Positions 13,797 through 50,246 of a stretch of 64,000 nucleotides of DNA are shown in pieces. A program made the position numbers and the translations under genes. The stretch lies in the NCBI GenBank assembly GCA_965242545.1, contig OZ251456.1, positions 316,076 to 380,075 of the forward strand. The letters run 5' to 3'. The notes under the pieces were generated by a model. The model saw nothing but the letters and a program-made list of their open reading frames with translations, was not told the DNA's origin and ran no database searches. Every line of letters starts with the position of its first letter. Position 1 is the first letter of the stretch. The DNA comes from a bacterium (lineage in GTDB: Bacteria > UBA8248).

Positions 13797-13874
13797 GTCC
13801 CCATCGTCTAGCCTGGCCCAGGACACCGGCCTTTCACGCCGGCAACAGGGGTTCGAATCCCCTTGGGGACGCCA
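13797..13874 (+). tRNA. tRNA-Glu (anticodon UUC)
   Basis: Cloverleaf read by hand. Acceptor GTCCCCA/TGGGGAC, D-arm TAGCCTGGCCCAGGA, anticodon stem CCGGC/GCCGG with loop CTTTCAC (UUC), T-arm AGGGGTTCGAATCCCCT, and an encoded 3' CCA. Confidence 0.85.
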
Positions 13875-13914
13875 GGGCGAAGGGGGGAGGCTCGGCGATG
13901 ATTGATAGAAGCGA

Positions 13915-15804: not shown

Positions 15805-15863
15805 AGAACCGACGGGCGCCTGCGCCCTCGCCATGCCGGAAAAGCAAAGGATAGAGAAATCGC

Positions 15864-17627: not shown

Positions 17628-17680
17628 GAATCTCAAGAGTTCGCTTGGAATCGTCGGATGAGGCATGAGGGCTTCAAAAA

Positions 17681-18475: not shown

Positions 18476-18487
18476 GGTTCCGTTTGC

Positions 18488-19213: not shown

Positions 19214-19216
19214 TTC

Positions 19217-21000: not shown

Positions 21001-21157
21001 TCCACCCGTCTTTTGGAACTTTCTCGAAACCGCCGGCGCTCCGCCCTCTTGAAGATTTTTGCGTGGATTCGCCCGCTCGGTCAGTAAAATTCCACATGTT
21101 TCAAGGTTTGCGGTTTCATGGGCGGAGCCTCGAAAGACAAAAGGTTGTGGTTGAAGC

Positions 21158-23142: not shown

Positions 23143-23417
23143 AAGTCCCCCGGGATATTTGATACTTGCGAGAACGTTCTGGATGTTGTGGCGATGAATA
23201 GAGGCATCGACCGGGGAGTGAAATGGTGAAACGGGCCTTGGAAAACGAAGACTTCGATCGGGCGGCTTGGAAAGGGGGAAACGCGCTTTCTGTTTTGGGG
23301 CTTCGCTGTCTTTGGCGGCGCTCCCGCCTCTTCGATCAGGCGCTTCAGGACGCCTATAGGGAATCTCTGGAAGCCCGCTTCAAGTGCGACACCCTTTTCG
23401 CCGTCATCACCGTTTGA

Positions 23418-24443: not shown

Positions 24444-24524
24444 GCGCTTCACGGGCGGGATGAACGTCTCCTCGAAAAGAGGCTTTTCCCGATATACCGA
24501 TATGCCTGATTTTGAGCGGAAGGC

Positions 24525-25514
24525 GTGAGGATGAGCGAAGCTCTTGTCAGTCTTGGTTCTTTCGGCTCATTCAGCCGCAAGCCCCTGATGATTCTTGAAG
24601 AAGCGGGCATCGGATACTCCTTTCAGCCGCACCCGCGCCGCCCGAGCGAGAGCGAGATGTGCGGCCTTGTGGGCGAGACCCGTTATATCATCGCGGGCGT
24701 GGAGCCGCTTACGGCGAAGGTGATGGAAAGCGCCCCGAACCTGAGGCTCATCTCGCGCGTCGGCGTCGGGCTGGACAGCGTGGATCTGCTGGCGGCCAGG
24801 GAGCGGGGCATCCAGGTTGCGTATACGCCCGAGGCGCCCTCCGCGGCCGTGGCCGATTTGACCATCGCTCTGATGGCGTCCATGCTTCGGGGCATCCGCA
24901 AGGCGGACGCGGCTCTGCGCGAGGGAAGATGGGAGAGGCGGGTCGGCCGAGGGATTGGCGATGTGACGGCTGGAATTATCGGGGTGAATCGCATCGGCAA
25001 GCGCGTCGCCCGGCTCCTCAGGGCGTTCGGCGCGGACATTTTGGGCCACGACGTCAAGCCGGACGTGGATTTCGGCGCCGAAACCGGAATCGCCTGGGTG
25101 GAGAAAAAAGAAATTTTCCGGCGGGCGGACGTGATTACCCTCCACCTGCCCATGAGTCCGCGGACGGAGAATTACGTCGGGCGGGCGGAATTGTCGTTGA
25201 TGAAGCCGGACGCCGTCTTGGTGAATACCGCGCGCGGGGGACTGATTGACGAAAAAGCCCTGGCCGAGGCGCTGGAGGCGGGAAGAATCGGCGGAGCGGC
25301 GCTGGACGTGTTCGCCGATGAGCCCTACGCCGGCCCTCTGGCGAATCTCGACAATGTTCTGCTGACGAGTCATATCGGTTCTTTTACGAAAGAATCCCGG
25401 GTGCGGATGGAGTCGGAGGCGGCGGAAAGCGTGGTTTTTTTCCATCGGGGGCTCCCCGTCTCCCGATTGGTGCCGGAGGCGGAGTATGAATTGCAGGGGA
25501 TCGCGCCTGAATAG
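24525..25514 (+). CDS. D-isomer-specific 2-hydroxyacid dehydrogenase (PGDH/GyaR-like)
   Basis: NAD-binding GIIGVNRIGKRVA, catalytic-domain layout, and HIGSFT near the C-terminus. Confidence 0.8.
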   Translation: MRMSEALVSLGSFGSFSRKPLMILEEAGIGYSFQPHPRRPSESEMCGLVGETRYIIAGVEPLTAKVMESAPNLRLISRVGVGLDSVDLLAARERGIQVAYTPEAPSAAVADLTIALMASMLRGIRKADAALREGRWERRVGRGIGDVTAGIIGVNRIGKRVARLLRAFGADILGHDVKPDVDFGAETGIAWVEKKEIFRRADVITLHLPMSPRTENYVGRAELSLMKPDAVLVNTARGGLIDEKALAEALEAGRIGGAALDVFADEPYAGPLANLDNVLLTSHIGSFTKESRVRMESEAAESVVFFHRGLPVSRLVPEAEYELQGIAPE

Positions 25515-25573
25515 GGCTCGCCGGGCGCTGGCGACGCGCTTTGGAAGCGGGTTATGCTTTGACGCGCGGGTGA

Positions 25574-27631
25574 ATGTGGATTGCTGAAAGGTTGAAAAAC
25601 CGGAGACACTCGGGAATGGAAGCCGAGGATCGAATATCTTTTCAGGAAATCGTGGAGGCGCTGAAGCGGCGCCGGCGTTTGCTTGTCGCGCTTCCCGCGA
25701 TATTCACGGCGGCCATCGTCGCGCTCTCCCTTTTGCAGGCGAGAGAATACAAAGCGACAGCCACGCTGCGCGTCGGCTTGCTGCGATTACAGGATGTCAC
25801 GTTGGAGCGCAGCCTATCGGGTCGGCGGATACAGACGGCCGTCAAACTGATCCCGAGTCTGGTGACCGCCAGGGAAGTGGTGCGAAAGTTCAAGTTGGAC
25901 GTCGATCCTTACAATGCGCGGACCGATGAGTTTTGGGACAATATCGGCTTGGTGAAAATCGTCAAGGGGACGGAGCTGATCGAAATATCGGCGTTCACGA
26001 TGAATCCCCGGCTGTCGAAGGACATAGCGAATTATATTGCCAATCAGACGATCAGCAGGCAGATGAAGCATGCGCAGTCTGACGCCTTGCGAGTACAAGA
26101 GGGGGTCAGAAAAAGGCTTGACGGCGCGAAGCGGCGCCTGGATAGCGCGGAGGACGCGCTGTTGAAATTCCACCAGGAATCGAGGCTGGACGAGTTGCGG
26201 CAGGATATCCGGACTTTGCTGGCCCAGCGGGAGTACTTGGCTTCCATGCGCTTCGCGAGCCTCCTCAACGCGCAAGATACCGATCGGGACGCTCTCTCCA
26301 AAGAAAAGGAAGAAGTGCTGAAATTGCTCCGGGGCGACGCGGAATTCCCGGAATTGAAGATGGCGATGGATAAGAACGACAGCTTGCTGGAGCGCCATCG
26401 CGCGCTTTCAAGGAAGATGCTGGAAATGAAGAGTCGGTTCTCCGCCATGCTCTCGGCGACGAATGGTGATTCAAGAGGCGATGCCCCGTTGAGCGCGCAA
26501 AGAAAATCAATAGAAAACGCGGGGGCGGGAGATGTCGTTCGGGCCGCGTCCGGGCTTGAAAAAATTCGGAGCGAGAAAAGATCGCTGGAAGCTGAAAGAA
26601 AAAATCTTTCGACCTCTCTGCCCGTCCTGACAGTCGAGATTCAGGTTTCCATGAGCAGATTGAAATCGCTCGAGACGGCGATGAGCGATTTCAGGAATGC
26701 GAGCCGGGCCGGATCATTTTCCGCGGATGGGCGCACCCGGTCGGACGCGCCGCGGAAAAACGGAGGCGCGAGTGATGAAAGGGCGTCTGGCGCGCCGTTC
26801 GACGCCGTATCCGTGAAAATCGTGGATGAGGAATCTCGTCTGGCGGGGCTGAAAGAAAAAAAGAAGCGGCATCAGGAGAGAATCGCCAGGATTGACGCGG
26901 AGCTGCCGGAGGTGTCCGGGAAATTGCGGGAGCTGGAGGCGAGGAGCCTGCTTCTGAAAATTTCCCGAACGTCGGACGAGATAAAGAAAATCGAATCTGA
27001 AATTCTCGCGAACCGCAGGGAAATCGCGGAGCGGCGGGGGCGGAGAAACAGTTTGCTTGCGAGGCTGGGCGCATTGGAGGAAGTGTCGTCGGGCGTTGGA
27101 AAAATCGATATTTCTTTTTTCAACGCCTCGCGCTCCGCCCGCCCGCTTGATTCCGAGGGGCCGGAGGATGGCGGTTCCCCGGAAAGGGAGCATTTCTCGC
27201 CGAATATATTGTTGAACAGGCTGCGGGTTTTGGACAGGGATATCCTGACGGCGGAGCGTTTGAGGCATCGGGAGAAATTGTTTGACGCCCGGTTGAAGGA
27301 TGTGGATAGAGAACTGGGCAAAAAGATCACGGAGAAAGCGGCTTCGGTTTCCCTTCGCGAACAAGTGGAGCTCGATCATTCGCTGGCGAAACGAACTTAC
27401 AGCGACATCTCCAAGGACTATAACCAGGCGGCGGCGGCCGTGTTGTCCAGCAGCACCGATTTGAGGATTGTCAGCCCTGCGAGATTGCCCGAGATGCCGG
27501 TTTCCGGACGGCATTTGGCGATCATGGCGTCATTGAGTTTTGTCTTCGGCTTGTTGTTCGCCATGTTCACGGCGCTGTTTCTCGAGTTCCGCCAAGCGAT
27601 TCTCGCGCGAAAAGAACCGGATGGCGCGTAG
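25574..27631 (+). CDS. Polysaccharide chain-length determinant / co-polymerase (Wzz/GumC-like, no kinase domain)
   Basis: N-terminal TM, long coiled-coil periplasmic region and a C-terminal TM (LAIMASLSFVFGLLFAMFTALFL). The start could be 25616 (MEAEDRISF). Confidence 0.7.
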   Translation: MWIAERLKNRRHSGMEAEDRISFQEIVEALKRRRRLLVALPAIFTAAIVALSLLQAREYKATATLRVGLLRLQDVTLERSLSGRRIQTAVKLIPSLVTAREVVRKFKLDVDPYNARTDEFWDNIGLVKIVKGTELIEISAFTMNPRLSKDIANYIANQTISRQMKHAQSDALRVQEGVRKRLDGAKRRLDSAEDALLKFHQESRLDELRQDIRTLLAQREYLASMRFASLLNAQDTDRDALSKEKEEVLKLLRGDAEFPELKMAMDKNDSLLERHRALSRKMLEMKSRFSAMLSATNGDSRGDAPLSAQRKSIENAGAGDVVRAASGLEKIRSEKRSLEAERKNLSTSLPVLTVEIQVSMSRLKSLETAMSDFRNASRAGSFSADGRTRSDAPRKNGGASDERASGAPFDAVSVKIVDEESRLAGLKEKKKRHQERIARIDAELPEVSGKLRELEARSLLLKISRTSDEIKKIESEILANRREIAERRGRRNSLLARLGALEEVSSGVGKIDISFFNASRSARPLDSEGPEDGGSPEREHFSPNILLNRLRVLDRDILTAERLRHREKLFDARLKDVDRELGKKITEKAASVSLREQVELDHSLAKRTYSDISKDYNQAAAAVLSSSTDLRIVSPARLPEMPVSGRHLAIMASLSFVFGLLFAMFTALFLEFRQAILARKEPDGA

Positions 27632-27760
27632 TTCCGCGGATTCGGCTCGCTCCTCGTCAAGGCTGAACGGAGGAAGGCTTCAAGCGTTCAGCCCTTCGCC
27701 CGCGTCGCGCTCCAGGGGCGCTTTCACAAGCCGCCGCGTCCTCGGGTAGCAACCCTTTCC

Positions 27761-29248
27761 ATGCCTGAAGAACGAACGTCAAACAACGAACGGACCGCAG
27801 GGGAGAAAGCGTTTTCTCCTTTCCGGCTTACCAATGCGGTCATTTATCTGCACGTGGTTCATTTCCTCATTCCATGGCGAAGCGTCCCTTACTTTCCGAG
27901 TCAGCTGACTCCTTACAGGGTCTTGATGGTCCTTGCCGCCATGCTGTGCGCGGCCTGGGTGATCGAACTCCTGCTGTTCGGGGCGAGGAAGCCGAAGCTG
28001 GCGTTCGGCGTCGCCGTGTTCTGGTTCTGGGTGATATTCTGGGGAGGGGTTCTGAAGGGCTACATGGACGACGACCCCATCAAGACGTATGTACCCCTAT
28101 ACAAGCTCCTGGGCTGGACCGTTCCATACGTGGACGGGATGCTCGTATGGTATTTGATTCGGAACAACGGGTGGGGCATGGCGGAGTTCGAGCGCGCGCT
28201 GAAGTGCGTCTTCTGGGTCTCCCTGGCCATAAGCATCGAGAACGTCCTGGTCTATTATCTGGGCGTTCCCGTTTCTTATTCGATGTTTCACGGGTCCGGG
28301 GTTCGTGTTTTCATGAGCATGTTCGTCCAGACCCACGAAACGGTCTCCAGACTCGGGTTGATATTGACGGGCGTCGGCTTTTATTTCTTTTTGAGAGAGA
28401 AGAGGCATTTTTATTTTTTCGCGTCGCTGTCCGGCGTCCTCATGGTTTTTTCCACCGGGAGCCGAGCGGCGATTCTGGCCCTGTTCGCGGGCGTATTGCT
28501 CGCCATCGTCTTTTTTCTGAAATTCAGAAAACGCGCGGGCGCGAGCGGGAAGCTCGGCTCTCTTTACGCCTTTTGTCTCGCGCCTTTGGCGTTCGCCCTG
28601 TTCGTTTCCGTCGGACTGACGATGGGAGCGGCGTCGAGAGAGCACTTCATCGATCTGACGCAAAGCGTCGTGCTCCGAGCCTATCAATACGCGCGCGCGG
28701 TGGATGTATTTCTGGAGCGGCCTCTTTTGGGGGGCGGGCCTTGGCTGGGCTTCATGTATCTGTATTCGAGGGATACGCCGCCCGTGTTCTCGGAGTATGT
28801 TTTCGGCGATCTCACGCATGACAACGTTGGCGAGCTCACCGGATGGACCGGCTGGGCGCATTACGACTGGCTTCAGGAAAACCCGATGGCGGAGAAATCG
28901 CGGTTGAACTCCCGGGAATTCCAGGAAAGCCACAACATACACCATCTGCATAGTCTGCCGCTCCAGGTTCTCGTTGACCTGGGGCTGTTGGGGCTGGTTT
29001 TGCTGATGATCATGCTCGCCGCCGGCGCGATATATTTTTTCAGGATCATGCTCCTGCGGCGACATGAGAACTCGTTTTCGCGCGCGATGCCCTTCGCCGT
29101 CATTTTCTCCACCGTGGTCGCCGTTTTCATAGGCGTTCTCAGCGTCGCCCTGTTTTATCCGTTCTGGCTTTTCGCCATCCTGCTGTGTTTCACGCGCTGC
29201 CTGTATCGGGAGGCATTGACGGCGTCCGGAGCTTCGGCTTCCGCATGA
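27761..29248 (+). CDS. O-antigen ligase/Wzy-like membrane protein
   Basis: More than 10 TM helices. O-antigen-ligase-domain motif STGSRAAILALFAGVLL and a large periplasmic loop with HNIHHLHSLPLQVLVDLGLLG. Confidence 0.65.
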   Translation: MPEERTSNNERTAGEKAFSPFRLTNAVIYLHVVHFLIPWRSVPYFPSQLTPYRVLMVLAAMLCAAWVIELLLFGARKPKLAFGVAVFWFWVIFWGGVLKGYMDDDPIKTYVPLYKLLGWTVPYVDGMLVWYLIRNNGWGMAEFERALKCVFWVSLAISIENVLVYYLGVPVSYSMFHGSGVRVFMSMFVQTHETVSRLGLILTGVGFYFFLREKRHFYFFASLSGVLMVFSTGSRAAILALFAGVLLAIVFFLKFRKRAGASGKLGSLYAFCLAPLAFALFVSVGLTMGAASREHFIDLTQSVVLRAYQYARAVDVFLERPLLGGGPWLGFMYLYSRDTPPVFSEYVFGDLTHDNVGELTGWTGWAHYDWLQENPMAEKSRLNSREFQESHNIHHLHSLPLQVLVDLGLLGLVLLMIMLAAGAIYFFRIMLLRRHENSFSRAMPFAVIFSTVVAVFIGVLSVALFYPFWLFAILLCFTRCLYREALTASGASASA

Positions 29249-39301: not shown

Positions 39302-40117
39302 TTGGAGCTCATCCTTCTGGGCGTGGGCGCGCCGCCCCCGACCCCCGAGAAAAGCGGTCCGTGCAACGGCGTCGTCAAGGGCGGGAAGCTCTACCTGGTT
39401 GACGCCGCCCGGCACGCCGCGACCCAGATCGTGAAGGCGGGCTTTCGCGTCGCCGGCGTGGACCACTTGTTTTTCACGCATTTTCACTCTGACCACTATA
39501 CGGGATTCGGCGACTTCTTCCTCTCCCGGTGGATCATGGGCGCCGGGACGCCTTTGAAGGTCTATGGCCCGTCGCCGGTTCACGAGATAGTCCGGCGGAT
39601 GCTTCATTATTACGAATACGACATCAATCTCCGGGTGGATGAGGGAAAGCCCGGGGAGGGCGCCGAAGTCGAGGCGGCCGCGCTCGCGCCCGGTGATTCG
39701 ATCGAGGTGGACGGCATCGAGGTTCGCGCGGAGAAGGGCACGCGCCACGGCAACGTGGACGACATCCTCTCCTATTCCTTTGCGGCGGAGGGAAGAAAAA
39801 TCGTCATGGCGAGCGATGGAAGCCCCACGGAAAAGCTGGCGTCCCTCGCCCGGGGCGCGGACGTTCTGGTGATGCACCCCTGCGTCCCGGAGTTGATAGG
39901 CGAGCGTTTCGGCGGATTCAGGGGCACGGCGAAGCTGGTGGCGGCCCATCACGCCACGGCGGAGGAGGTCGGGAGAACGGCCGCTCGCGCCGGCGCGGGC
40001 AAGCTCGTTTTCTCCCACGTGGTTCCCCCCCTGGCGCCGAACGAAAGGGTGAGGGAGGCGATAGTCCCTTATTTCGACGGCCCCGTCATCGCCGGCGAGG
40101 ATTTGATGCGGCTTTGA
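39302..40117 (+). CDS. MBL-fold metallo-hydrolase (RNase Z/Lactamase_B_2-like)
   Basis: FFTHFHSDHYTG motif. 271 aa. Confidence 0.7.
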   Translation: MELILLGVGAPPPTPEKSGPCNGVVKGGKLYLVDAARHAATQIVKAGFRVAGVDHLFFTHFHSDHYTGFGDFFLSRWIMGAGTPLKVYGPSPVHEIVRRMLHYYEYDINLRVDEGKPGEGAEVEAAALAPGDSIEVDGIEVRAEKGTRHGNVDDILSYSFAAEGRKIVMASDGSPTEKLASLARGADVLVMHPCVPELIGERFGGFRGTAKLVAAHHATAEEVGRTAARAGAGKLVFSHVVPPLAPNERVREAIVPYFDGPVIAGEDLMRL

Positions 40118-40257
40118 GCCCGCACGCGCTTTCCGGATTTCGCCTTGATGCAATCCGGGCGCGCCTGTGGCATACTCCCCGCATTCCATACAGGGCGGCG
40201 GCGCGCCATTTCGGCTTCGGGAGGTTCGTCTTTTCATTTCTTGGAGGAGGAAACGAG

Positions 40258-41268
40258 ATGAGAAAGTTGTTTGGGCTTCTGAGTCTGCTCCTCGTTTTAA
40301 GCCTCACGCCGGTCGATTCCTTCGTCCGCGACGCGCGGGCGGCCAAGTTCCGCATCGGGATGCACCGCCAGACGTTCGGAGCCTTCACCGCGGTCGCCAT
40401 GGGGATGGGTTATTTCGACGAGGAATTCGGAAAGGGCAACTGGTCGGTGAAGGTTTTCCCGCAGGGCAAACTCGTCATCGAGGCGCTGCTCTCCCGCAGC
40501 CTCGACGTGGGACACGGCGCCACGCGGCCTTTCGTGGACGGCGTGGCCAAAAAGGCGGGCCTGACGATGATTTCCGTCAGTTCCTCCTGGTGCAAATCCA
40601 TCTCCATCTGGGTGCCGCTGGACTCCCCCGTCAAGACGGTGGCCGACCTCAGGGGAAAGACCATCGCCGAGAAAAAAGGCACGTCCACGCACTTCGTCCT
40701 GGACAACGGCATTCTGCCCGCGTTCGGCATGAAGCCGGGCGACATCAAGATCATGAACACCACGACGGCGGAGCGCCTCTCCGCCTACAGGGCGAAGGTG
40801 GTTTCCGCCATGGTGATCGGCGCGCCCACGTCGTTCCGCCTCACGGACAAGAAATGGGGGCGGCCCATCGTTGATTACTGCAAATACGACAATCCGCCGG
40901 CCATGATCTTCATCGAGCTCGCCAATCCCAGAACGCTGAAAAGCAACCCGGAAGGCGTGGTGAAATATCTGCGCGCCTATCTGAAATCCGCGCAGCTTTG
41001 GAAAAAGGACCCCGACAAGTTCGCCAGGGTCTATCACAAATGGCTCATCTCGAAGGGGCGCAAGGTGGATTATTCCATCGCCAGGCGCGCCATCAACGTG
41101 GTGCGGCCGCTGTACAAAATCACCCCCCGCATCATCAACGCGCTCAACGCGACGGCCAAGGTGCAAAAGGGCCGGGGCAAGATTCGCCGCTTGCCTGATT
41201 TCGCGGGCGGTGAAGGCATCAATGACGGCCCGATCAAAAAGGCGCTGGCCAGCATGAACATGAACTGA
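40258..41268 (+). CDS. ABC-type substrate-binding protein (NMT1/SsuA/TauA-like) with signal peptide
   Basis: Signal peptide MRKLFGLLSLLLVLSL, periplasmic-binding-protein type 2 layout. No cognate permease or ATPase adjacent. Confidence 0.6.
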   Translation: MRKLFGLLSLLLVLSLTPVDSFVRDARAAKFRIGMHRQTFGAFTAVAMGMGYFDEEFGKGNWSVKVFPQGKLVIEALLSRSLDVGHGATRPFVDGVAKKAGLTMISVSSSWCKSISIWVPLDSPVKTVADLRGKTIAEKKGTSTHFVLDNGILPAFGMKPGDIKIMNTTTAERLSAYRAKVVSAMVIGAPTSFRLTDKKWGRPIVDYCKYDNPPAMIFIELANPRTLKSNPEGVVKYLRAYLKSAQLWKKDPDKFARVYHKWLISKGRKVDYSIARRAINVVRPLYKITPRIINALNATAKVQKGRGKIRRLPDFAGGEGINDGPIKKALASMNMN

Positions 41269-41342
41269 GGCTTTTTGGGCCCGGCATTCGAGGCTGCGGA
41301 GGCGTTTTTCTGAGCTTCCGCAGCCTTTGCCGCGTTTCGGGC

Positions 41343-42452
41343 GTGAGAGCGGATGGAATGTGCCGGATGGCCGGTTTGAAAATAGCGAAGATAGAAGCGA
41401 AGTCCATCAGGACGCCCTTGTCCCGCCCCATAGGGAGCGCGAGCGGGGCGAAATCGGAACTGGATTATCTGCTGGTTTTTCTCCACACCGAGAACGGCCC
41501 GACCGGTTGCGGCTTCGTGATGAGTCTGGGCGAAGCGGCCTCGACCGCCCTCGTTCCCTACGTTGAAAAGGAACTGGCGCCTCTGGCGAAGGGGCGGGAC
41601 GCGCTCGCGCCCGAGGCGCTTTGGCGGCGTCTTTGGGGGCCGAACAAGGCGAGAATGCGCGGCGGGCTGGGCGTTCAGGCGCTCTCCGCGGTGGACACCG
41701 CCTGTTGGGACGCGCTCGCGAAGGCGGCGGACATGCCGCTTTCCCGCGTCCTGGGCGGGTTCGGAAGCGAGGTTCCCGTCTATGGCAGCGGAGGGTGGCT
41801 CACGTTCACGGACGCCGAGATGGTGGAGGAATGCCGGGGCTTCGCGGAGAAGGGAATCGGCGCCTACAAACTGAAACTGGGGACGGAGCGGGACGAGGAG
41901 CGAATCCGCGTTTTGAGAAGGGAGATGGGAGAGGAAATCGTTTTGTTCGCGGACGCGAACCAGAAATACAACGCGCGCGAAGCCCTGGAGGCGGCCGCGA
42001 TGCTCGCCGAATACGACGTGAAATGGTTCGAGGAGCCGGTGTTGGCGGATTCCGTGGACGACCTCGCAGAGGTGGCGCGAAGGAGTCCGACGCCCGTCGC
42101 GGCGGGGGAAAACGCTTATATGCGCTGGGGTTTTCGGGAGATTTGCGAAAGAAGGGCGGCTTCGTTTCTGCAGCCCGACGTGGGCCGCTGCGGCGGCGTG
42201 ACGGAATTTCGCAAGGCGGCTCATCTGGCGGAAGCCTGGAGCCTTCCGCTGTGCAGCCATTTGCTCCAGGAGGTTTCGGTCGGCCTCATCGCCTCGACGC
42301 CGAGCGGCTACATGGTGGAGTATATGGAACTTCTTCCCCCGGATGTCCTGACGCGGGATTTTCCCGTCGCGAACGGCCGCATGAAGGTTCCCGACGCGCC
42401 CGGCCACGGTGTGGAATTCACCGAGCGCGCCATCCGAAAATACGCGGTTTGA
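41343..42452 (+). CDS. Enolase-superfamily enzyme (mandelate racemase/muconate lactonising enzyme family)
   Basis: KLKLG...FADANQ...WFEEP...GENA metal-ligand and barrel pattern. The start may be 41367 (MAGLKIAKIE). Confidence 0.8.
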   Translation: MRADGMCRMAGLKIAKIEAKSIRTPLSRPIGSASGAKSELDYLLVFLHTENGPTGCGFVMSLGEAASTALVPYVEKELAPLAKGRDALAPEALWRRLWGPNKARMRGGLGVQALSAVDTACWDALAKAADMPLSRVLGGFGSEVPVYGSGGWLTFTDAEMVEECRGFAEKGIGAYKLKLGTERDEERIRVLRREMGEEIVLFADANQKYNAREALEAAAMLAEYDVKWFEEPVLADSVDDLAEVARRSPTPVAAGENAYMRWGFREICERRAASFLQPDVGRCGGVTEFRKAAHLAEAWSLPLCSHLLQEVSVGLIASTPSGYMVEYMELLPPDVLTRDFPVANGRMKVPDAPGHGVEFTERAIRKYAV

Positions 42453-42464
42453 GGAGGATCGGAT

Positions 42465-43349
42465 TTGGCTGAAAAAGTCGCGTTTCTGGGCCTGGGAAAC
42501 ATGGGCGGCGCCCTTGCGGCCAATCTGGTGAAGGCCGGCTTCGAGGTGTCGGGCTTCGATCCGAGCCCGCCCGCCCGGGAGGCGACGGAAAAAGCGGGCG
42601 TCCCCGTTTTCGATTCTCCCGCCGAGGCGGCCAAGGGCGCGGATTACGTTTGCAGCGCGGTGCCCACGGGCGCGCAGGCGCGCGACGCCTATCTGGGCGA
42701 AAAGGGCGCGCTCCTCGCCGCCGGGGAGGGCGCCGTCTGCTTCGACTTTTCGACCATCCTGCCCGAGGAGAGCATCTCCATCGCGGAGGAAGCCGAGTCC
42801 CGCGGTTTTCACTTTCTGGATACCCCCGTCAGCGGGAACGCGCTCATCGCGCGCGACGCGAAAATCGGCCTCATGGTGGGCGGGAAAAAGGAGGTTCTGG
42901 ACGCGCACCGGGCGGTGCTGGAGAGCGTGTGCGAACTGCTCGATTATTTCGGCCCCAATGGTTCGGGCTTGAGAATGAAGTTGATCGCGAATCAGTTGGT
43001 GTCGTGCCAGCTGTGCGCTCTGGCGGAGGGATTCACCCTTGGGGTGAAGTCGGGCCTCGACCCGGATCAAATGATGGAATATCTCTACTCGAGCACGGTG
43101 TTTCGCGTGATGAGCGCGCGCGGCTGGGGCTTGAGAAAAAAGGAGTATGAACCCGTGAAGTTCGCCCTCGCCCTCATGCGCAAGGACCTGGGCCTCATCA
43201 GGGAGTTCGCCCGGTCGAACGGCGTCCCCCTGCCGCTGACCGACGCGGTTCAAAAGGCGTATCAGGGAGCGATGGACATGGGGCTCGGCGATTTGGACCA
43301 GGGCGTCATACGCGAATGGTTCGAGCGCGAAGCAGGGCTCGGCGGCTAG
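42465..43349 (+). CDS. NAD(P)-dependent oxidoreductase (3-hydroxyisobutyrate dehydrogenase/6-phosphogluconate dehydrogenase-like)
   Basis: VAFLGLGNMGGALAANL Rossmann motif and the HIBADH-family layout. Confidence 0.8.
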   Translation: MAEKVAFLGLGNMGGALAANLVKAGFEVSGFDPSPPAREATEKAGVPVFDSPAEAAKGADYVCSAVPTGAQARDAYLGEKGALLAAGEGAVCFDFSTILPEESISIAEEAESRGFHFLDTPVSGNALIARDAKIGLMVGGKKEVLDAHRAVLESVCELLDYFGPNGSGLRMKLIANQLVSCQLCALAEGFTLGVKSGLDPDQMMEYLYSSTVFRVMSARGWGLRKKEYEPVKFALALMRKDLGLIREFARSNGVPLPLTDAVQKAYQGAMDMGLGDLDQGVIREWFEREAGLGG

Positions 43350-43390
43350 GCGGGGCTGTCTTTTCAGACGCCGTTCAGGAGGGTGGGCGA

Positions 43391-44266
43391 TTGGAGCGAT
43401 TGACCGAAAACGTCTTTTATTACGACTGCTACCCGACGGTGGGCATGGTGGCGACCGACGAGGGCGTCCTCGCCGTGGACGGCCCCATGCGGCCCTCCGA
43501 GGCGATCGCCTGGCGCGACTTCATCAGGGAGAAAGGCCCGCTGCGCTACCTCGTCAACACGGAGCATCACCAGGATCACATCGCGGGCAACTGGCTCCTG
43601 CGGCCCGAGACGATCATTTCCAGCGAAGTCGCGTATGCGGATTTTTACGCCTCCATCGCCACGGCGGAGGAGGGCAGGGAGCGCATGCTCAAATACGACC
43701 CCGGGAGCGAGGCGCTGCTCGACGGCTTCGAGCTCCGCCCTCCCGACGTCACCTACAGGGAGCGGATGACGATTCGCATGGGCGGCAAAACGTTCATTCT
43801 CATCCATTCCGCCGGCCACACGCGGGGGCAAACCATCGTTCACGCGGTGGAGGATCGCGTCGCCTTCACCGCGGACAACCTGACGCCCGCCTACAACGTG
43901 GCGCTTCACTCGGCCGACGTGTGGGGCTGGTTCCAGTCGCTGGGAATGATCGAGGCGCTGGACGTGGACTGGTACGTTCCCGGCCACGGCCGGCCCTGCG
44001 GCAAGGAGGAGATACCGCGCCAGCGCGAAAAGCTCCACGCGCTCGTCGAGAAGGTCAGGGCCATGAAGAACGAGGGGCTGAGCCGGGAGCAGGTGCGCGA
44101 GAGGGTCTTTGAAGTCTATGAGACGGACCTCAAGAGCAACGATCACATGGGAGAGCGCCTCACGATGCTGAGAAAGGGGGGGCTGGGCAACGTCTACGAT
44201 TATCTGGAGGAGCACCCCTCGGGCCCCCTGAACAACCGCACCGACCCCGTGTGGCCTCACCTGTGA
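43391..44266 (+). CDS. MBL-fold metallo-hydrolase
   Basis: NTEHHQDHIAGN His motif. TTG start at 43391 with an AGGAG RBS; the track ORF begins upstream at 43316. Confidence 0.65.
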   Translation: MERLTENVFYYDCYPTVGMVATDEGVLAVDGPMRPSEAIAWRDFIREKGPLRYLVNTEHHQDHIAGNWLLRPETIISSEVAYADFYASIATAEEGRERMLKYDPGSEALLDGFELRPPDVTYRERMTIRMGGKTFILIHSAGHTRGQTIVHAVEDRVAFTADNLTPAYNVALHSADVWGWFQSLGMIEALDVDWYVPGHGRPCGKEEIPRQREKLHALVEKVRAMKNEGLSREQVRERVFEVYETDLKSNDHMGERLTMLRKGGLGNVYDYLEEHPSGPLNNRTDPVWPHL

Positions 44267-44315
44267 ACGCGGCGCTTCGCGCCGTGAAGCCGCCCTCGAT
44301 GAGGGAGCTTTCGAT

Positions 44316-45770
44316 ATGGAGCCGATGAACCTGCTCGTCATCATGTCGGATGAGCACAACGTCAAAACGCTCGGCTGCTGCGGGCACCCCATGGTGAAGA
44401 CGCCGAACATCGACCGCTTGGCGGCTTCGGGGACCCGGTTCGCGAGCGCCTATACGAACTCCCCGATCTGCATGGTCGCCCGGGCGATCTTCGCCACGGG
44501 CCGCCCCGCGCATGAAACCGGCCTTTGGGACAACGCGAGTCCCTACGCGGGAAAGCCGCCGGGCTGGGCGCATCGCCTTCAGGCCGAGGGCCATCGCGTC
44601 ACCTCCATCGGGAAGCTGCACTACAGAAATTCCTCGGACCCCACCGGCTTCGATGAGCAGATCGTCCCCATGCACGCCCGCGACGGCGTGGGCAACGCGC
44701 TGGGCTCCATCCGGGATGAGCTGATCGTTCAGAAGGCGGACAGTCTGGCGCGTGAAATAGGCCCGGGCGAGACGAGCTATTCGAACTACGACCTCGACGT
44801 CGCCGACAGGGTGCGCGCGTGGCTCGAAAACGACGCCCGGAAATACGGCGACAAGCCCTGGATGACTTTCGTCTCCTTCGTCTCGCCTCATTTCCCCCTG
44901 ATGGCGCCCCGGGCGTATTACGACATGTACCCGCCCGATTCCGTGCCCATGCCCAAGCCTCACGCGCTCGACGGCCGACCACGGCATCCGTGGCTGGAGG
45001 CGTATCGAAAATACGTGCCCTCGGACAGTTTTTTCGACGACGAGAAAAGGCGCGTCGCCATTGCGTCCTATTTCGGCCTTTGCACGTTTCTGGACGCCCA
45101 GGTCGGCCGCGTCCTGGAGAGCCTGGAGCGCGCGGGCCTCGAAGGCTCCACCCGCGTCTTCTTCGCGAGCGATCATGGAGAGAATCTGGGGGCGCGGGGA
45201 ACGTGGGGCAAGGGCACGATGTATGAGGAATCGGCCGCGGTGCCGCTCATCATGGCGGGGCCCGGCGTCGAGGCGGGCAGGGTGGTCGAGACGCCCGTCT
45301 CGCTTCTGGATTTCCATCCCACCATCCTGGAGTCGGTCGGCGCGCCGCCCGGCGAGGAGGACGGGCGGCGCGCGGGGCGCTCGCTCTATGAAATCGCGCG
45401 CGCGCCCTATGACGCTGAGCGGGTCGTTTTCAGCGAATACCACGCGTCGGGGGCGGAGACGGCGGCCTACCTCATTCGCAAGGGACGCATGAAGTATGTT
45501 CATTACGTAGGCTACCCGCCCGAGCTGTATGACTTGGCGAGCGATCCCGAGGAGCAGAACGACGTCGCGGGCAGGCCCGAAAGCAAAGCGATCCTCGATG
45601 AACTGGAAGGCGACCTGCGCGAAATTCTCGACCCCGAGGAGACGGACAGGCGGGCGAAGCGGGATCAGGCGGCGCTGGTCGAGCGCCTGGGCGGCCGCGC
45701 CCGCGTCATCGAGACGGCCGCTGCGGGCGCCACGCCCACCCCGGGAAACTACGCCGACGACGGGTATTGA
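44316..45770 (+). CDS. Sulfatase-family hydrolase (alkaline phosphatase superfamily)
   Basis: LVIMSDEHN...NSPICMVARA active-site region and a later metal-binding block (FASDHGE). Confidence 0.75.
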   Translation: MEPMNLLVIMSDEHNVKTLGCCGHPMVKTPNIDRLAASGTRFASAYTNSPICMVARAIFATGRPAHETGLWDNASPYAGKPPGWAHRLQAEGHRVTSIGKLHYRNSSDPTGFDEQIVPMHARDGVGNALGSIRDELIVQKADSLAREIGPGETSYSNYDLDVADRVRAWLENDARKYGDKPWMTFVSFVSPHFPLMAPRAYYDMYPPDSVPMPKPHALDGRPRHPWLEAYRKYVPSDSFFDDEKRRVAIASYFGLCTFLDAQVGRVLESLERAGLEGSTRVFFASDHGENLGARGTWGKGTMYEESAAVPLIMAGPGVEAGRVVETPVSLLDFHPTILESVGAPPGEEDGRRAGRSLYEIARAPYDAERVVFSEYHASGAETAAYLIRKGRMKYVHYVGYPPELYDLASDPEEQNDVAGRPESKAILDELEGDLREILDPEETDRRAKRDQAALVERLGGRARVIETAAAGATPTPGNYADDGY

Positions 45771-45776
45771 GTCGGC

Positions 45777-46475
45777 TTATCCGGAAAGCTGGAGCTGGCG
45801 CGGCGCTTGATCGTTGGTAGAACAATACGGAACAATCCATCCCCGGGATGTGAGTCTATTTATTTCGATCTTCGTTATATCAATGGTACAGGATGCGGAT
45901 TTTGGTTCTTCTTTCCCCAAAAGATACGCCTTAAATGTGAATGTGAGCTTGTCAGTTTTACTGAGCACATCCAAGGCTTCTTTCTTAAATAAATGATTAC
46001 AGCCTGGTTGTTTGAAACACGGTTTCGGGTAAAAATAGATCTCCCTACTCAATGAATTGCCAGCTTTGATTGGCCTTGGTGCCGCTGCCGCAATGAACTT
46101 ATTGTTAAGATTACCGTCCTCCGCTGGGTCGGAAAATTGCCATTCTGAGTGCCAAACCTGAATATATTCCTTTCCATCAAGTGTGAACGACACATACTCA
46201 TGGTGCACCACCGCATTGTAGTCTCGGGTACCCGTATTAACGTATGCCATGCGCGCACCGATTCGCAAAAAACGGCGATCATCGTTATTCGGATCATTCC
46301 GGTCCTTCTCGAACTTTAGCAAAACTTGCTCTGGCGGAAAAAAAGAGATTGAGGCTCCTTTTATGTAAAATATAACGTTAATGATGGCATTGACGAAGGA
46401 GATTAGTAACGCCAGACCAGCTATGAAATTGGTTATGGTCATCCCCCGTGCCATTTGAGTTTTAGAATCGTTCAT
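45777..46475 (-). CDS. Hypothetical membrane-anchored protein (232 aa) in low-GC islet
   Basis: N-terminal TM (ITNFIAGLALLISFVNAIINVIFYI), then a soluble domain with 4 Cys. Local GC is about 42%. Confidence 0.45.
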   Translation of the reverse strand: MNDSKTQMARGMTITNFIAGLALLISFVNAIINVIFYIKGASISFFPPEQVLLKFEKDRNDPNNDDRRFLRIGARMAYVNTGTRDYNAVVHHEYVSFTLDGKEYIQVWHSEWQFSDPAEDGNLNNKFIAAAAPRPIKAGNSLSREIYFYPKPCFKQPGCNHLFKKEALDVLSKTDKLTFTFKAYLLGKEEPKSASCTIDITKIEINRLTSRGWIVPYCSTNDQAPRQLQLSG

Positions 46476-46494
46476 GATGAAGCTTTACGGAGTA

Positions 46495-46731
46495 CTACGC
46501 CATGTTTCGAGGAGGCGGTGGCGGAGGTGGTGGCGATGGCGGTGGCGGATCCGGTGCCGGCATAAATGTCGAAGAAAGAGCGAAAGAGGGGAAGGATAGT
46601 TGTTCAATCGTAGGAAGCAAGAAGCTGATGGACACGATGGAAGCCAAAAGGAGCATTTTCATGTCGAAGAATCCTCCCGTCAACCAATCAGCGGCAAATT
46701 TTAATATATGATTTTTGATCTTCTTTGTCAA
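46495..46731 (-). CDS. Small hypothetical membrane protein with Pro-rich tail (78 aa)
   Basis: Central hydrophobic helix, C-terminal PAPDPPPPSPPPPPPPP encoded by a GGN/CCN repeat. An antisense Gly-rich ORF (46502..46711 +) exists, so the coding strand is uncertain. Confidence 0.3.
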   Translation of the reverse strand: MTKKIKNHILKFAADWLTGGFFDMKMLLLASIVSISFLLPTIEQLSFPSFALSSTFMPAPDPPPPSPPPPPPPPRNMA

Positions 46732-46747
46732 GGGCCAGCGTCCCTTC

Positions 46748-47377
46748 TCACTCCCCCGCCTCGGGGAACTCCTCCGGCCAGTCGGCCAGCAGCGCCTCCA
46801 GATACGCCTTGAGGTCGTCCGGCCTTTTCCGGCGAATCCTGTTCCGATCGATTTCCTCCTGCGCTTCGATGGGAATCCCCAGCGCGTCGTTGAATTTGTT
46901 TCTCATGTTGAAATAGGTGACGACCATGGTGAGCTCCACGATTTCCGCGTCGCTGAAATGCTTCCTGACCCCGGCGAAAACGTCGTCCCTCTCCCCGGCC
47001 GTGCCCAGCGTCACGTGCTCCGCCCAGAGGAGGACGGCGCGCTCTTTCTCCGTGAAGGAGGCGTAGTCGCCCTCGCCGATGGCCGCGATCCGCTCTTCCG
47101 TAATGCCCACCGATTGACCAACCGGCGCGTTGTGCGCCAGTCAGTAGGCGCAGTCGTTGAGCTGGCTGGTCTTGATGATGGCCAGCTCCTTGGTCTTCGT
47201 GCTCAGCGCCGAGCCCAGCCCCTGGCGCAGGAGCGACGAGGTGAGCGGCAGCATGAATTTCGCGATGAAGGGCTGGTTCGCCATCACCCGCCAGGCGTTG
47301 GGGACGCGGTTCAGGAGAACGCTCGCGTGGTCGAACAGATGGTTCACGACGGGGTCATCGGATCCGGATTCGAGCAT
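46748..47377 (-). CDS. Carboxymuconolactone decarboxylase (AhpD-like) family protein with in-frame TGA at the CxxC position, a candidate selenoprotein
   Basis: ORFs 47141..47731 and 46748..47110 are in the same frame, separated only by TGA 47141-47143. The read-through protein is ...KTSQLNDCAY-U-LAHNAPVGQS-VGITEERIAAIGEGDYASF..., i.e. the AhpD/CMD redox motif with the second Cys replaced by the TGA codon. The likely start is ATG 47375-47377 (MLESGSDD). A GC hairpin (CUGGCGC-ACAAC-GCGCCGG) follows the TGA directly. Confidence 0.6.
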
Positions 47378-47537
47378 GGGGACGCGGGACACGGGGTCTG
47401 CTCCTCTCTTTTGACGGATAATGGAGAAAACGACGCATTGTCCGATGAAACGCGAATTTTTTGAACCGTGATATGCTTCGCCCCGCGAGCAGCGCGGCGT
47501 TGGACGGACGCGCCCGCCGCCTGGTTCCCGCGCTTTC

Positions 47538-48659
47538 TTGAAGGCGACGCCCATGATCCCGGACGAGACGACAAGGCCCATCGGCCTGGCGGTGGTGGGA
47601 TGCGGCAGGATCGGGCGCATCCGGGCGGAATTCGCGCGCCGCAACCCGGCGGTCGAATGGATCGGGCTGTGCGACGTGAACGAGAATACGGGCCGGACGC
47701 TGGCGAAAGACCTGCGCGCCGATTTTTTCACGACGGACTACCGGGAGCTCCTGAAGCGGGACGAGGTGAACGGCGTCGTCCTGGCCACGTACGCGAACGA
47801 GCGGCTCGAACCCGTCATGGCGAGCGTGGAGCGCGGCCACCGGATGCTCATCGAAAAGCCCCTGGCGGTGGACGCGCGGACCTCCGCCCGGCTGGTGAAG
47901 GCCATCGACGACGCGGGGGCGGACGCCGTCCTGGGATATACGCAAAGGTTCCGCCGCCGCTTTCTGGCGGCGAAGGAGAAGGTTCGCTCCGGCGCGCTGG
48001 GCGACGTCTCCTCCGTCACGGCCCGCGCCTTTTTGAACCGCATGAATCCGGCGGCGAACTCCGCCAGGAGCGAATCCCCCGCGACATTCACCCCGATGGT
48101 CATCTCCGGCACCCACAGCGTGGACTTGTGCTCCTGGCTGCTGGAGGGGCGGCGTCCGGTCGAGGTGTACGCGCGCTCGGTGGACAAGGCGATGGCGCCC
48201 TGCCTCACCAAGGATTCAACGTTCGCCATCGTCACCTATGAGGACGGGACGATATGGAGCATGAACGTGAGCTGGGCGCTGCCGCGCGTCTGGCCGTCTG
48301 AGGTCTATTCGCTCGAGTTGGGGATCGTGGGAACGGGAGGCGCGCTCACCATAGACGATACCCACCGCGACGTGGTGTTCGCCACCGAGGCGCCGCGCGA
48401 ATCCGCGCGCCTGAAGGAAGGGCGGAACGTGAGTTTTCTGACGAGCTATCCGCCGGGAGACGTGGCGTTCGAGCAGCTCTGGGGCCCCATGCGCGAGGAG
48501 ACGCGCTCATGGTTCGACAGGATTTATCTGGGCGTTTCCACGCCGCACGCGACGGCGAAGGAGGCGCATGAGAACCTGATGCTGTGCCTGGCGATGGATC
48601 ACTCGGCGAAAACGGGCCGGGCGGCGCCGCTTCCGGCGTCCCCGGAGGATTTTGAATAG
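47538..48659 (+). CDS. Gfo/Idh/MocA family oxidoreductase (paralog 1)
   Basis: GLAVVGCGRIGRIR Rossmann motif, IEKPLA, GYTQRFRRRF. Confidence 0.8.
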   Translation: MKATPMIPDETTRPIGLAVVGCGRIGRIRAEFARRNPAVEWIGLCDVNENTGRTLAKDLRADFFTTDYRELLKRDEVNGVVLATYANERLEPVMASVERGHRMLIEKPLAVDARTSARLVKAIDDAGADAVLGYTQRFRRRFLAAKEKVRSGALGDVSSVTARAFLNRMNPAANSARSESPATFTPMVISGTHSVDLCSWLLEGRRPVEVYARSVDKAMAPCLTKDSTFAIVTYEDGTIWSMNVSWALPRVWPSEVYSLELGIVGTGGALTIDDTHRDVVFATEAPRESARLKEGRNVSFLTSYPPGDVAFEQLWGPMREETRSWFDRIYLGVSTPHATAKEAHENLMLCLAMDHSAKTGRAAPLPASPEDFE

Positions 48660-48768
48660 ATGAACGGGCGCGCGTCGCCGCTTGCGGGCGAGGCCGCGCC
48701 CTTTCGTCTTGAGCTCGAGGCTTCCGCCCGCTTTTATCCATGACCTGACGACTTCGCGGGAGATAGCG

Positions 48769-49899
48769 ATGACGGCCGCCGGGGGGGAGAGAACCCCGAT
48801 TGGTTTGGCGATAGTGGGCTGCGGCAGGGTGGGCCGCATTCGCGCGCGCTGCGCCCGGGAATATCCGGGCGCGGAGTGGCTCGGCTGCTGCGATATCGAC
48901 GAGAAAAAAGGCAGGGCCATGGCGGAGGAATTCGACGCCGACTTTTTCACCGCCGACTTTTCGGAGCTTCTCCAAAGGCCGGAAGTCAACGCCGTCGTCA
49001 TCGCCACGGACGAGGAATGGCACGCGAAGCCTCTGTGGGAGTCCATTGAGCGAGGCCACAGGATACTGGTGGAAAAGCCGCTGGCCACGAGCGTGACGGA
49101 ATCGGCGAAAATCGTGGAGGCCGCGGAGGCGGCGGGCGTGGAGTTGCTCGTGGGCTACACTCAGCGCTTCAGGAGGCGCTGGCTCGCGGCGAGGGAGCAC
49201 GCGCAGTCCGGCGTCCTTGGCGAGATTACCTCCGCGACGACGCGCGCGCTGCTCAACCGCCAGGTCGGGATCACGCGATTGTCGAGGAACGAGGATCGCT
49301 CCACCCTGACGCCCATGGTGATATCCGGCACCCACGCGCTGGACGTCATGCTGTTCATCCTGGGGCCGGAGAAGCGGCCCGTGGAGGTCGTCTCGCGCTC
49401 GATCTCGAGGGTGATGGCGGGGGTCGGCTCGCAGGACGCCACGTTCAGCATCTTCACCTTCGACGACGGCGCCATCTGGAGCATGGAGTGCCACTGGGGA
49501 ATGCCCGCCATCTGGCCCGCGTCAACCTACGGCGTCGCCGTCAGCGTGGTGGGCGCGGAAGGCGCCCTGACCATCGACGACACCCACGCCGACTTCATCA
49601 TGGCGTCCGAGAACCCGCTGGCTTCTCACCGGGGAGAGGAGCGCCACGTGCACCTGCTGGGGAGCTATCCGGCGGGGGACATGTCCAGGGGCCAGTTCTG
49701 GGGGCCGATGCGCGATGAAACCATCGCCTGGCTCACGCATCTCTGCACGGGCGCGGACATGCCCCACGCCACCGGAGCCGAGGGACACCGAAACCTCATG
49801 CTCTGCATGGCGTGCGACTTGTCGGCCAAGCGGGGGGAAGCCGTCAGGCTGCCCGCCGCGCCGGAAGAGCTGCAGGCGGGCCTGCAGGCGAAAGCCTAA
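48769..49899 (+). CDS. Gfo/Idh/MocA family oxidoreductase (paralog 2, tandem duplicate)
   Basis: About 50% identical to the upstream gene over its full length (GLAIVGCGRVGRIR, VEKPLA, GYTQRFRRRW, TPMVISGTH). Confidence 0.8.
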   Translation: MTAAGGERTPIGLAIVGCGRVGRIRARCAREYPGAEWLGCCDIDEKKGRAMAEEFDADFFTADFSELLQRPEVNAVVIATDEEWHAKPLWESIERGHRILVEKPLATSVTESAKIVEAAEAAGVELLVGYTQRFRRRWLAAREHAQSGVLGEITSATTRALLNRQVGITRLSRNEDRSTLTPMVISGTHALDVMLFILGPEKRPVEVVSRSISRVMAGVGSQDATFSIFTFDDGAIWSMECHWGMPAIWPASTYGVAVSVVGAEGALTIDDTHADFIMASENPLASHRGEERHVHLLGSYPAGDMSRGQFWGPMRDETIAWLTHLCTGADMPHATGAEGHRNLMLCMACDLSAKRGEAVRLPAAPEELQAGLQAKA

Positions 49900-50246
49900 T
49901 CCATCGTGGCGGTCGGCGGCGGCCAGTCTTCCGACCTGTTCTTGAACGAGAGGTAGATGAACTCGCCGTCGCCTTCGTTCCTGAACTCGTGCTCCGTTCC
50001 TTCGGGAATGTGGACTACGTCGCCCGCGGCGACGGTTTTTTCCTCATCGCCCACCCGGAACCACGCGGTTCCCTCGACGACGTTGATGATTTGCTCGCAG
50101 CCGTGCGCGTGCGGGCGCGCCAGCTTGCCGGGCTGGCTCACCGATCGGTTCAGGGTGACGTGCTCGCCGATGATGATGCTGCCCTCCGAATCCGAGGGCT
50201 TGGCCAGGTTTTTTCGCCGCATCTCCTCCCAGCGGTAAAACGGCAT
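49896..50246 (-). CDS. Cupin-domain protein
   Basis: Two His-containing cupin motifs (HAHGCEQIINVVEG ... HIPEGTEHEF). Start at ATG 50244-50246. Confidence 0.65.
   Translation of the reverse strand: MPFYRWEEMRRKNLAKPSDSEGSIIIGEHVTLNRSVSQPGKLARPHAHGCEQIINVVEGTAWFRVGDEEKTVAAGDVVHIPEGTEHEFRNEGDGEFIYLSFKNRSEDWPPPTATMD

Follow-up and report, generated by a model that had tools for sequence, protein, structure and literature searches.

The window studied here is a stretch of 64,000 nucleotides of bacterial DNA (GenBank assembly GCA_965242545.1, contig OZ251456.1, positions 316,076 to 380,075 of the forward strand), and its own numbering is used throughout unless another locus is named. Between a sulfatase gene and an AhpD-like gene, the window contains a segment of low guanine plus cytosine content (GC), referred to below as the island. 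This cassette of about 0.93 kb joins a gene of an unannotated membrane protein family, predicted to be immunoglobulin-like (Ig-like), to a mini open reading frame (ORF) encoding a putative signal peptide and a polyproline run. The locus was compared in particular with two loci that share its flanks, L013 (ENA ERZ23496098) and L014 (ERZ23496159). The features are listed below, with the energy of the duplex formed with the anti-Shine-Dalgarno (anti-SD) sequence where it was calculated.

44316-45770, plus strand: sulfatase gene (PF00884), flanking the island
45777-46475, minus strand: gene of 232 amino acids (aa) with an ATG start, predicted type II membrane protein (ORF list and AlphaFold2 (AF2) model)
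45777-45809, minus strand: last 10 codons (QAPRQLQLSG) and stop codon of the 232-aa ORF, host DNA common to L013
45810-46741, no strand: low-GC indel carrying the cassette (blastn against L013, GC)
46476-46494, minus strand: spacer of 19 nt between both ORFs, without Shine-Dalgarno (SD) sequence (anti-SD duplex -0.1 kcal/mol)
46495-46731, minus strand: 78-aa ORF with a TTG start, ending in PPPPSPPPPPPPPRNMA (ORF list)
46495-46662, minus strand: small ORF of 55 aa, MKMLLLASIVSISFLLPTIEQLSFPSFALSSTFMPAPDPPPPSPPPPPPPPRNMA, its start deduced from the positions of the promoter and of the SD sequence
46502-46711, plus strand: antisense Gly-rich ORF of 69 aa, MFRGGGGGGGGDGGGG... (ORF list)
46510-46548, minus strand: mixed-codon (CCN)n tract encoding PPPPSPPPPPPPP (read from the sequence)
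46672-46678, minus strand: SD sequence GGGAGGA, 9 nt 5' of the ATG of the small ORF (anti-SD duplex -10.3 kcal/mol)
46703-46731, minus strand: sigma-70-type promoter match TTGACA-17-TATATT (consensus scan, 11 of 12 matches)
46748-47371, minus strand: CMD/AhpD-like gene interrupted by an in-frame TGA, flanking the island

The small ORF is the same-strand upstream neighbour of the 232-aa gene, with 19 nt from stop to start. The original prediction, made from the letters of the window, had read it as a 78-aa protein with a central transmembrane helix. The TTG taken as its start (46731) opens the -35 box TTGACA of the promoter match, and this reading has been abandoned. The start is most likely the ATG at 46662, which gives a product of 55 aa rather than 78 aa. 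This product displays a positive n-region, a hydrophobic core (11-residue Kyte-Doolittle mean of 2.44) and a Pro-rich tail, and its hydrophobic segment is most likely an N-terminal Sec-type signal peptide and not a central membrane helix. Here and in the other loci, signal peptides were called from the positive n-region and the hydrophobic core, not by a SignalP-type predictor. The promoter, called as a consensus match only, sits inside the island at 10 nt from its border, and at the equivalent position L014 carries TTGACA-17-TATTCT; we infer that it is probably active.

The (CCN)n tract ends 4 codons before the stop of the small ORF, the run of 8 prolines being followed by 4 residues, and 34 nt separate it from the ATG of the 232-aa gene. 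When the window was cut into stop-to-stop segments (1053 with 30 aa or more), this was the only one with a run of six or more prolines, which speaks against a chance feature. From the hydrophobic core to the last proline there are 34 residues, and the peptide contains neither Cys nor His. A slippage-prone contingency repeat was rejected in view of the mixed Pro codons (CCG, CCA and CCT), which form no perfect repeat.

A word-indexed search with the 232-aa protein detected two relatives only. An exhaustive HMMER search recovered relatives in 243 clusters (50% identity) at E<=1e-3 and in 103 clusters at E<=1e-10, and nearly all members comprise 200-270 aa and are aligned end to end. No family of Pfam, NCBIfam, PADLOC or PHROGs was found for the 232-aa protein, the small ORF or the antisense ORF, in agreement with the original prediction, which had seen no recognisable domains. 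With 108 aligned members of the family, Pfam gave single chance matches only, and the PDB sequence profile search was empty.

The AF2 model of the 232-aa protein, obtained from the 108-sequence alignment, has a predicted local distance difference test score (pLDDT) of 93 and a predicted template modelling score (pTM) of 0.83. It comprises a membrane helix (residues 12-39, encoded by 46359-46442), an Ig-like beta-sandwich (residues 43-199) and a short helix (residues 202-211). The Foldseek neighbours of the model reach template modelling scores (TM-scores) of 0.2-0.5 only, with 5-14% identity. Within the family, the most conserved residues are N80 (100%), C218 (96%), C196 (94%), E93 (94%), Y78 (92%) and M76 (78%); a second pair of cysteines is present in about 64% of members, and position 144 is His in 77% of the family and Arg in the protein of the window. 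The single N-terminal membrane helix and the Cys-containing soluble domain described earlier are therefore recovered by both the model and the conservation. Since a conserved R/K-T-D precedes the helix and the cysteines come after it, the topology would be N-in, C-out, the soluble domain lying in the periplasm. The family to which the 232-aa protein belongs is unannotated and, judging from the model, membrane-tethered and Ig-like. The ratio of nonsynonymous to synonymous substitution rates (dN/dS) of the family gene is 0.06-0.10, and this gene is under strong purifying selection.

The GC content, calculated in 300-bp windows, is 0.417-0.50 between about 45700 and 46750 and 0.62-0.71 in the flanks. 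L013, which displays 96.7% nucleotide identity on both sides, lacks the island: by blastn, positions 40001-45809 of the window correspond to L013 689-6494 and positions 46742-49904 to L013 6622-9763. Between them, L013 contains a filler of 127 GC-rich bases unrelated to the island. The borders of the island were defined by the limits of this alignment, and the island thus extends from 45810 to 46741 (932 bp), with a GC content of 45.0% versus 62.5% in the rest of the window. The empty site of L013 bears out the original prediction of a foreign micro-island. The GC drop that it reported was correct as well, whereas its limits, from the stop of the sulfatase to the AhpD-like gene, are to be replaced by the borders given here. 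Neither target-site duplications nor inverted repeats of at least 7 nt were found at these borders. At 90% identity, the sulfatase of the window shares its cluster with nine further contigs.

In L014, an independent metagenome assembly, this site is occupied by a homologous pair of low GC, directly after the stop of the AhpD-like gene. Its flanks are 88-90% identical in nucleotides to those of the window, its module has a GC content of 46.7% versus 66%, and it carries another allele of both genes, the large proteins being 52% identical. The sulfatase beside this cassette is internally deleted, with the first ~63 nt and the last ~45 nt left (L014 5777-5893), and L014 also lacks the two Gfo/Idh/MocA genes located past the AhpD-like gene; the surroundings of the cassette have therefore been rearranged as well. 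The site is thus known in three states, empty (L013), with allele A (the window) and with allele B (L014), which rules out an assembly artefact, initially envisaged. The island is a genuine strain-specific insertion or replacement at a recurrent site, and the three states point to a repeated exchange of the cassette at this position.

The homologues of the 232-aa protein stop at ...PPCW(L/P), some 12 residues short of the end of the protein of the window. The 3' end of its ORF is a read-through into host DNA, because positions 45777-45809 lie outside the border of the island. This lost 3' end is what could be expected of an inert remnant without function, and the family is also nearly absent from isolate genomes. 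Nevertheless, neither ORF is disrupted, selection strongly constrains the family gene, its product is modelled with a pLDDT of 93 and the independent assembly L014 has a homologous cassette at this site, so that a remnant or an artefact appears extremely improbable.

The variation between strains also has to be considered with regard to toxin/immunity, bacteriocin/immunity, superinfection-exclusion or abortive-infection systems, in which the peptide would act as a toxin or signal and the membrane protein would confer immunity or exclusion. Presence and absence vary by strain, very divergent alleles occupy one site, the low GC persists in several hosts, and the order of a peptide followed by a membrane protein resembles that of bacteriocin operons. 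The family was detected in one of 72,556 plasmids, that of Azotobacter chroococcum (NZ_CP066311.1, found with three different queries), and this copy is flanked by insertion sequence (IS) elements. On the other hand, no relative was found in 50,697 phage records and none was confirmed among the IMG/VR viral contigs; BFVD gave weak matches to uncharacterised proteins only, and neither PADLOC nor PHROGs has a match, as said above. Motif scans of the GTDB representative genomes with two subfamily alignments confirmed nothing either. The peptides are neutral or acidic and polyproline, not amphipathic or cationic, their neighbours are not defence genes, and genes for export, processing or lysis are not present. 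Such a role, suggested by the original prediction together with a holin-like one, is distinctly improbable in our view. Two further candidates were rejected: a proline-rich antimicrobial peptide, since the peptides are not cationic, and a spanin pair, since the peptide of the window has no lipobox Cys, the large protein is a beta-sandwich and not a coiled coil, and no endolysin or holin gene lies nearby.

To describe the upstream gene, the window was compared with 14 other loci (L001-L012, L014, L015 and L016, where L010 equals L009; L017 equals L016). A same-strand upstream ORF with a signal-peptide-like segment and a Pro-rich region is present in 14 of the 15 loci, the window included, and the gene pair was found again in soil metagenomes. 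The original prediction had proposed to look for the pair in other genomes and in defence islands: the pair is indeed conserved, and the 15 loci lie in varied, mostly metabolic neighbourhoods and not in defence islands. The upstream ORF is short (49-115 aa) in 10 of these loci, and its run of 6-12 prolines is followed by 0-4 residues before the stop. The small or partner ORFs have a dN/dS of 0.21-0.34 and are under purifying selection. Their mature peptides have neutral or acidic Pro-rich tails, and in the window and L014 the mature peptide would have about 25 residues, half of them proline, with no foldable domain. The following C-termini, each up to the stop codon, illustrate these ORFs.

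L003, upstream ORF, not one of the 10 with a long run: ...EQPPPN
L004, upstream ORF: ...ATGSPPPPPPPPPP
L005, upstream ORF: ...PIGSPPPPPP
L007, upstream ORF: ...ASPDAPPPPPPPPPSRS
L008, upstream ORF: ...ASPDKPPPPPPPPPPPPQSK
L014, upstream ORF: ...CPVCGGTPSPPPPPPPPDSGR

The same comparison settles which strand of the (CCN)n tract is coding. An ATG upstream of the run is missing from the antisense Gly frame of 10 other loci, the window alone having one, and in L006, L007 and L014 this frame is open for just 19-35 codons. The plus-strand Gly-rich gene, which the original prediction had named as the possible conserved one, is not conserved and was judged a non-coding by-product of the tract. The choice of the minus strand made at that time holds, as an ORF with signal peptide and polyproline recurs upstream of the family members.

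Two groups of neighbouring genes were observed around these cassettes. One subfamily invariably has, after the cassette, a convergent gene for a prolyl-hydroxylase-like 2-oxoglutarate-Fe(II) oxygenase (PF13640) and a DUF6065 gene, at the positions listed below. The location of a prolyl hydroxylase beside a polyproline peptide is suggestive of a possible link.

L004, 6759-8519: PF13640 oxygenase and DUF6065 genes
L005, 6782-8657: the same two genes
L009, 2213-4007: the same two genes
L010, 1848-3603: the same two genes
L011, 2536-4391: the same two genes

Genes of the metallo-beta-lactamase fold adjoin the cassette in L001 (2544-3455, minus strand) and L002 (2147-3058, minus strand), and one lies near it in the window (43316-44266, plus strand), in L013 and in L014; this proximity may be a coincidence.

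Between the stop of the small ORF and the start of the family gene there are -4 to +64 nt, with no more than 28 nt in most loci. The anti-SD duplex energies were calculated for 13 loci. The starts of the small ORFs have a mean of -6.3 kcal/mol and those of the family genes a mean of -1.4 kcal/mol; random positions of the same loci have a mean of -2.3 kcal/mol, so that the starts of the family genes are weaker than these. The small ORF has the stronger SD sequence in all 13 pairs (Wilcoxon p=0.00024). The effector gene having no ribosome-binding site of its own, it is probably reached through translation of the ORF that precedes it, and its translation would thus be coupled.

From these data, we propose that the small ORF is a leader of the CutF/SecM type, translationally coupled to the gene of an envelope protein. 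We give this reading a probability of about 0.45, hence somewhat below one half. The segment would then be a self-contained, horizontally moving two-gene cassette composed of a promoter, a leader ORF and an effector gene. The effector would be a single-pass inner-membrane protein, with a cytoplasmic N-terminus and a periplasmic Ig-like beta-sandwich stabilised by disulfides. Ribosomes would translate the leader of 55 codons and then re-initiate on the effector 19 nt past the leader stop. Peptide bonds form slowly at consecutive prolines, which require elongation factor P (EF-P). As the 34 residues from the hydrophobic core to the last proline roughly match the length of the ribosomal exit tunnel, a polyproline pause at the end of the leader would coincide with the moment when the signal peptide leaves the tunnel. 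This pausing or stalling on the proline run, to which the analogy points, would work as in CutF, CruR, SecM and VemP. The engagement of the nascent leader with the signal recognition particle (SRP) and SecYEG, together with EF-P activity, would set the time that the ribosome dwells over the junction; this dwell time would in turn set the amount of effector, whose synthesis would be placed at the membrane. Such a regulatory outcome and such an effector function are presumptive.

A wider formulation can be put forward only tentatively. The ORFs would represent an undescribed class of cis-acting leaders, widespread in uncultured soil bacteria, in which hardly more than a Sec signal peptide and 6-12 C-terminal prolines would gate the translation of an SD-less gene, in dependence on EF-P and secretion, and would also localise it to the membrane. 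The product of this gene would belong to a new family of Ig-like proteins of the periplasm, tethered to the membrane, and the whole would move as a promoter-equipped cassette of ~1 kb.

Several observations weigh against a leader. EF-P normally resolves pauses at plain polyproline, but not the arrests caused by RAPP motifs (PMC12992588), and the minimum free energy (MFE) folds of 12 junctions reveal no shared hairpin sequestering the ribosome-binding site; in some of them (L005, L011 and L009), Pro codons pair with the start region. Apart from L014, the closest relatives of the protein of the window are those of L016 (49% identity), L001 and L002 (44% identity), and in these three loci the partner is a long form of 140-170 aa in which the Pro-rich part is internal. 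The Pro-rich segment of the long forms resembles that of the window (FSFPTPPALLAPGSAAPDSP against LSFPSFALSSTFMPAPDPPPP), and after it comes a helical domain that contains Cys and is conserved. Such a long-form partner has the look of a genuine secreted protein more than that of a leader alone. The upstream protein of the Azotobacter plasmid locus is secreted and not Pro-rich. Finally, L005 and L011 contain two small ORFs in tandem, which is unusual for a leader, at the following positions.

L005, 5334-5633 and 5696-5989: tandem signal-peptide-polyproline ORFs, 5' of the family gene
L011, 1105-1392 and 1429-1731: tandem signal-peptide-polyproline ORFs, 5' of the family gene

These tandem ORFs share a mid-region DRhxxLxSLLGxxhhP, which a leader leaves unexplained.

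All these partners could instead be structural. The exported Pro-rich product would bind the beta-sandwich ectodomain in a two-protein envelope complex, by means of a polyproline-II rod and, in the long forms, of the C-terminal disulfide-bonded helical domain; the close spacing and the missing SD sequence would then only fix the ratio of co-expression. The conserved C-terminal Cys domain of L001, L002 and L016, the DRhxxLxSLLGxxhhP mid-region of the L004-type peptides, the tandem paralogues of L005 and L011, the constraint on the small ORFs and the secreted non-Pro-rich protein of Azotobacter can all be accommodated in this way. Binding in the periplasm, however, explains neither why the proline run stands 0-4 codons before the stop in 10 loci nor the consistent absence of a downstream SD sequence, and the short mature peptides of the window and L014 offer no domain that could fold. 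We regard a structural partner as the main alternative to a leader, although somewhat unlikely. A leader and a structural partner are not mutually exclusive in our analysis, because CutF itself is exported.

The leader of L014 contains HH and CPVC just ahead of its proline run, and the partners of L001 and L002 contain Met/Pro motifs of the MPSPM type. Both features are compatible with a leader devoted to metal homeostasis, that is a CutF-like periplasmic sensor of copper or another metal placed before a membrane-tethered metallochaperone of the PCuAC/YcnI type. Judging from the alignment, M76, Y78, N80, E93, H144 (in 77% of members) and E145 could form a binding site, and ORFs with Pro motifs precede PCuAC and YcnI genes elsewhere (PMC12992588). 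Against this stand the lack of any Pfam PCuAC or DUF2946 match, the leader of the window, devoid of Cys and His, the Arg that replaces the semi-conserved His144 in the protein of the window, and the surroundings of the cassettes, no locus being adjoined by copper genes. A metal-specific function is rather improbable.

Three other parts of the window deserve mention. The AhpD-like gene at 46748-47371 (minus strand) has its in-frame TGA at 47141-47143, within ...LNDCAY-U-LAHN... (CxxU motif), and split AhpD-like calls (83 aa plus 88 or 120 aa) are also found in L013 and L014. As the TGA is conserved, the gene probably encodes a selenoprotein; an Rfam scan of positions 45000-48000 detected no family and no selenocysteine insertion sequence (SECIS). 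A second low-GC patch (42% at 7-8 kb) contains, at 6914-8317 on the minus strand, the gene of a 467-aa GmrSD-type restriction endonuclease (PF03235 at 4e-13 and PF07510 at 4e-4), which is probably another horizontally acquired defence gene. Directly after a tRNA-Glu (13797-13874), the region 13797-28000 comprises ~14 kb of 50-60% GC with genes for an ATP-binding cassette (ABC) exporter, a cytidylyltransferase, a short-chain dehydrogenase/reductase (SDR), an epimerase, a family 2 glycosyltransferase (GT2) and a Wzz-like protein. From its gene content, it looks like a variable surface-polysaccharide cluster.

Whatever the mechanism, the analysis adds a new protein family (at least 243 clusters at 50% identity, a confident predicted fold and no Pfam entry) with an obligate upstream partner. 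The presence/absence and allelic polymorphism of the cassette at one chromosomal site points to strain-level selection on an envelope function. If the small ORF is a leader, the logic of exported, proline-stalling leaders would reach a simpler element, made of a signal peptide and plain polyproline, and would extend to an unannotated target family. The cassette would also provide a minimal system of ~170 nt for the interplay between EF-P, SRP/Sec engagement and termination-reinitiation.

Among the systems described to date, the closest leader architecture in our comparison is that of CutF of Rhodobacter capsulatus and CruR of Bordetella pertussis (DUF2946), in which a Sec signal peptide and a C-terminal proline motif control downstream translation (PMC9973294; bioRxiv 10.1101/2025.02.05.636593). 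CutF combines its Sec signal peptide with a periplasmic Cu-binding motif and a C-terminal PPP, and downstream translation depends on the translation of the leader, on its export, on copper and on EF-P (same references). In the cassettes, the small ORF likewise lies directly upstream, on the same strand, of the gene of an extracytoplasmic protein. The small ORFs also pass the filter of PMC9973294 (less than 150 aa, PP in the last 15 residues, N-terminal signal peptide and same-strand downstream gene). They differ from CutF and CruR in that no DUF2946 match was obtained even at E<=10 (hmmscan with the small ORF of the window and 12 other upstream ORFs). They contain 6-12 prolines in place of PPP and no conserved CxxxC/His metal site, the HH and CPVC of L014 not being general. 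The downstream gene belongs to another, unannotated family; no conserved stem-loop that would hide an SD sequence was seen, and this gene has no SD sequence at all.

SecM, VemP, MifM, ApdA, ApdP and ApcA associate an N-terminal localisation signal with a Pro-containing stall site near the stop and control the next gene in cis (PMC7897499, PMC10987492, PMC12992588). The small ORFs share with them the localisation signal and the proline motif a few codons before the stop. Their C-termini (...PPPPPPPPRNMA, ...GSPPPPPP and ...ASPDxPPPPPP) contain no RAPP, RGPP or RAGP, and arrest at RAPP is refractory to EF-P whereas plain polyproline is EF-P-sensitive (PMC12992588). In contrast to the monitors of Sec and YidC, neither Pfam nor NCBIfam has a family for the protein encoded downstream, which is modelled as a generic Ig-like sandwich, not as a component of Sec or YidC.

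Upstream ORFs with a C-terminal RAPP or RGPP and a localisation signal precede genes for PCuAC and YcnI, which are periplasmic beta-sandwich copper chaperones, and also genes for TonB receptors and DsbA-like proteins (PMC12992588). The 232-aa protein is structurally remote from PCuAC (SCO3965, PDB 3zk0), as it is from other membrane-tethered Ig-like ectodomains, namely those of TMEM106B/LEA-2, DUF4352 and archaeal type IV pilins (Foldseek TM-scores of 0.2-0.5, 5-14% identity and no Pfam match). The copper motif of PCuAC is H(M)x10Mx21HxM. It is not evident in the consensus of the 232-aa family, in which the Pfam model of PCuAC (DUF461) has no match. We rate exported proline-stalling leaders as known, and the proposed version with a long plain polyproline, together with its target family, as new.

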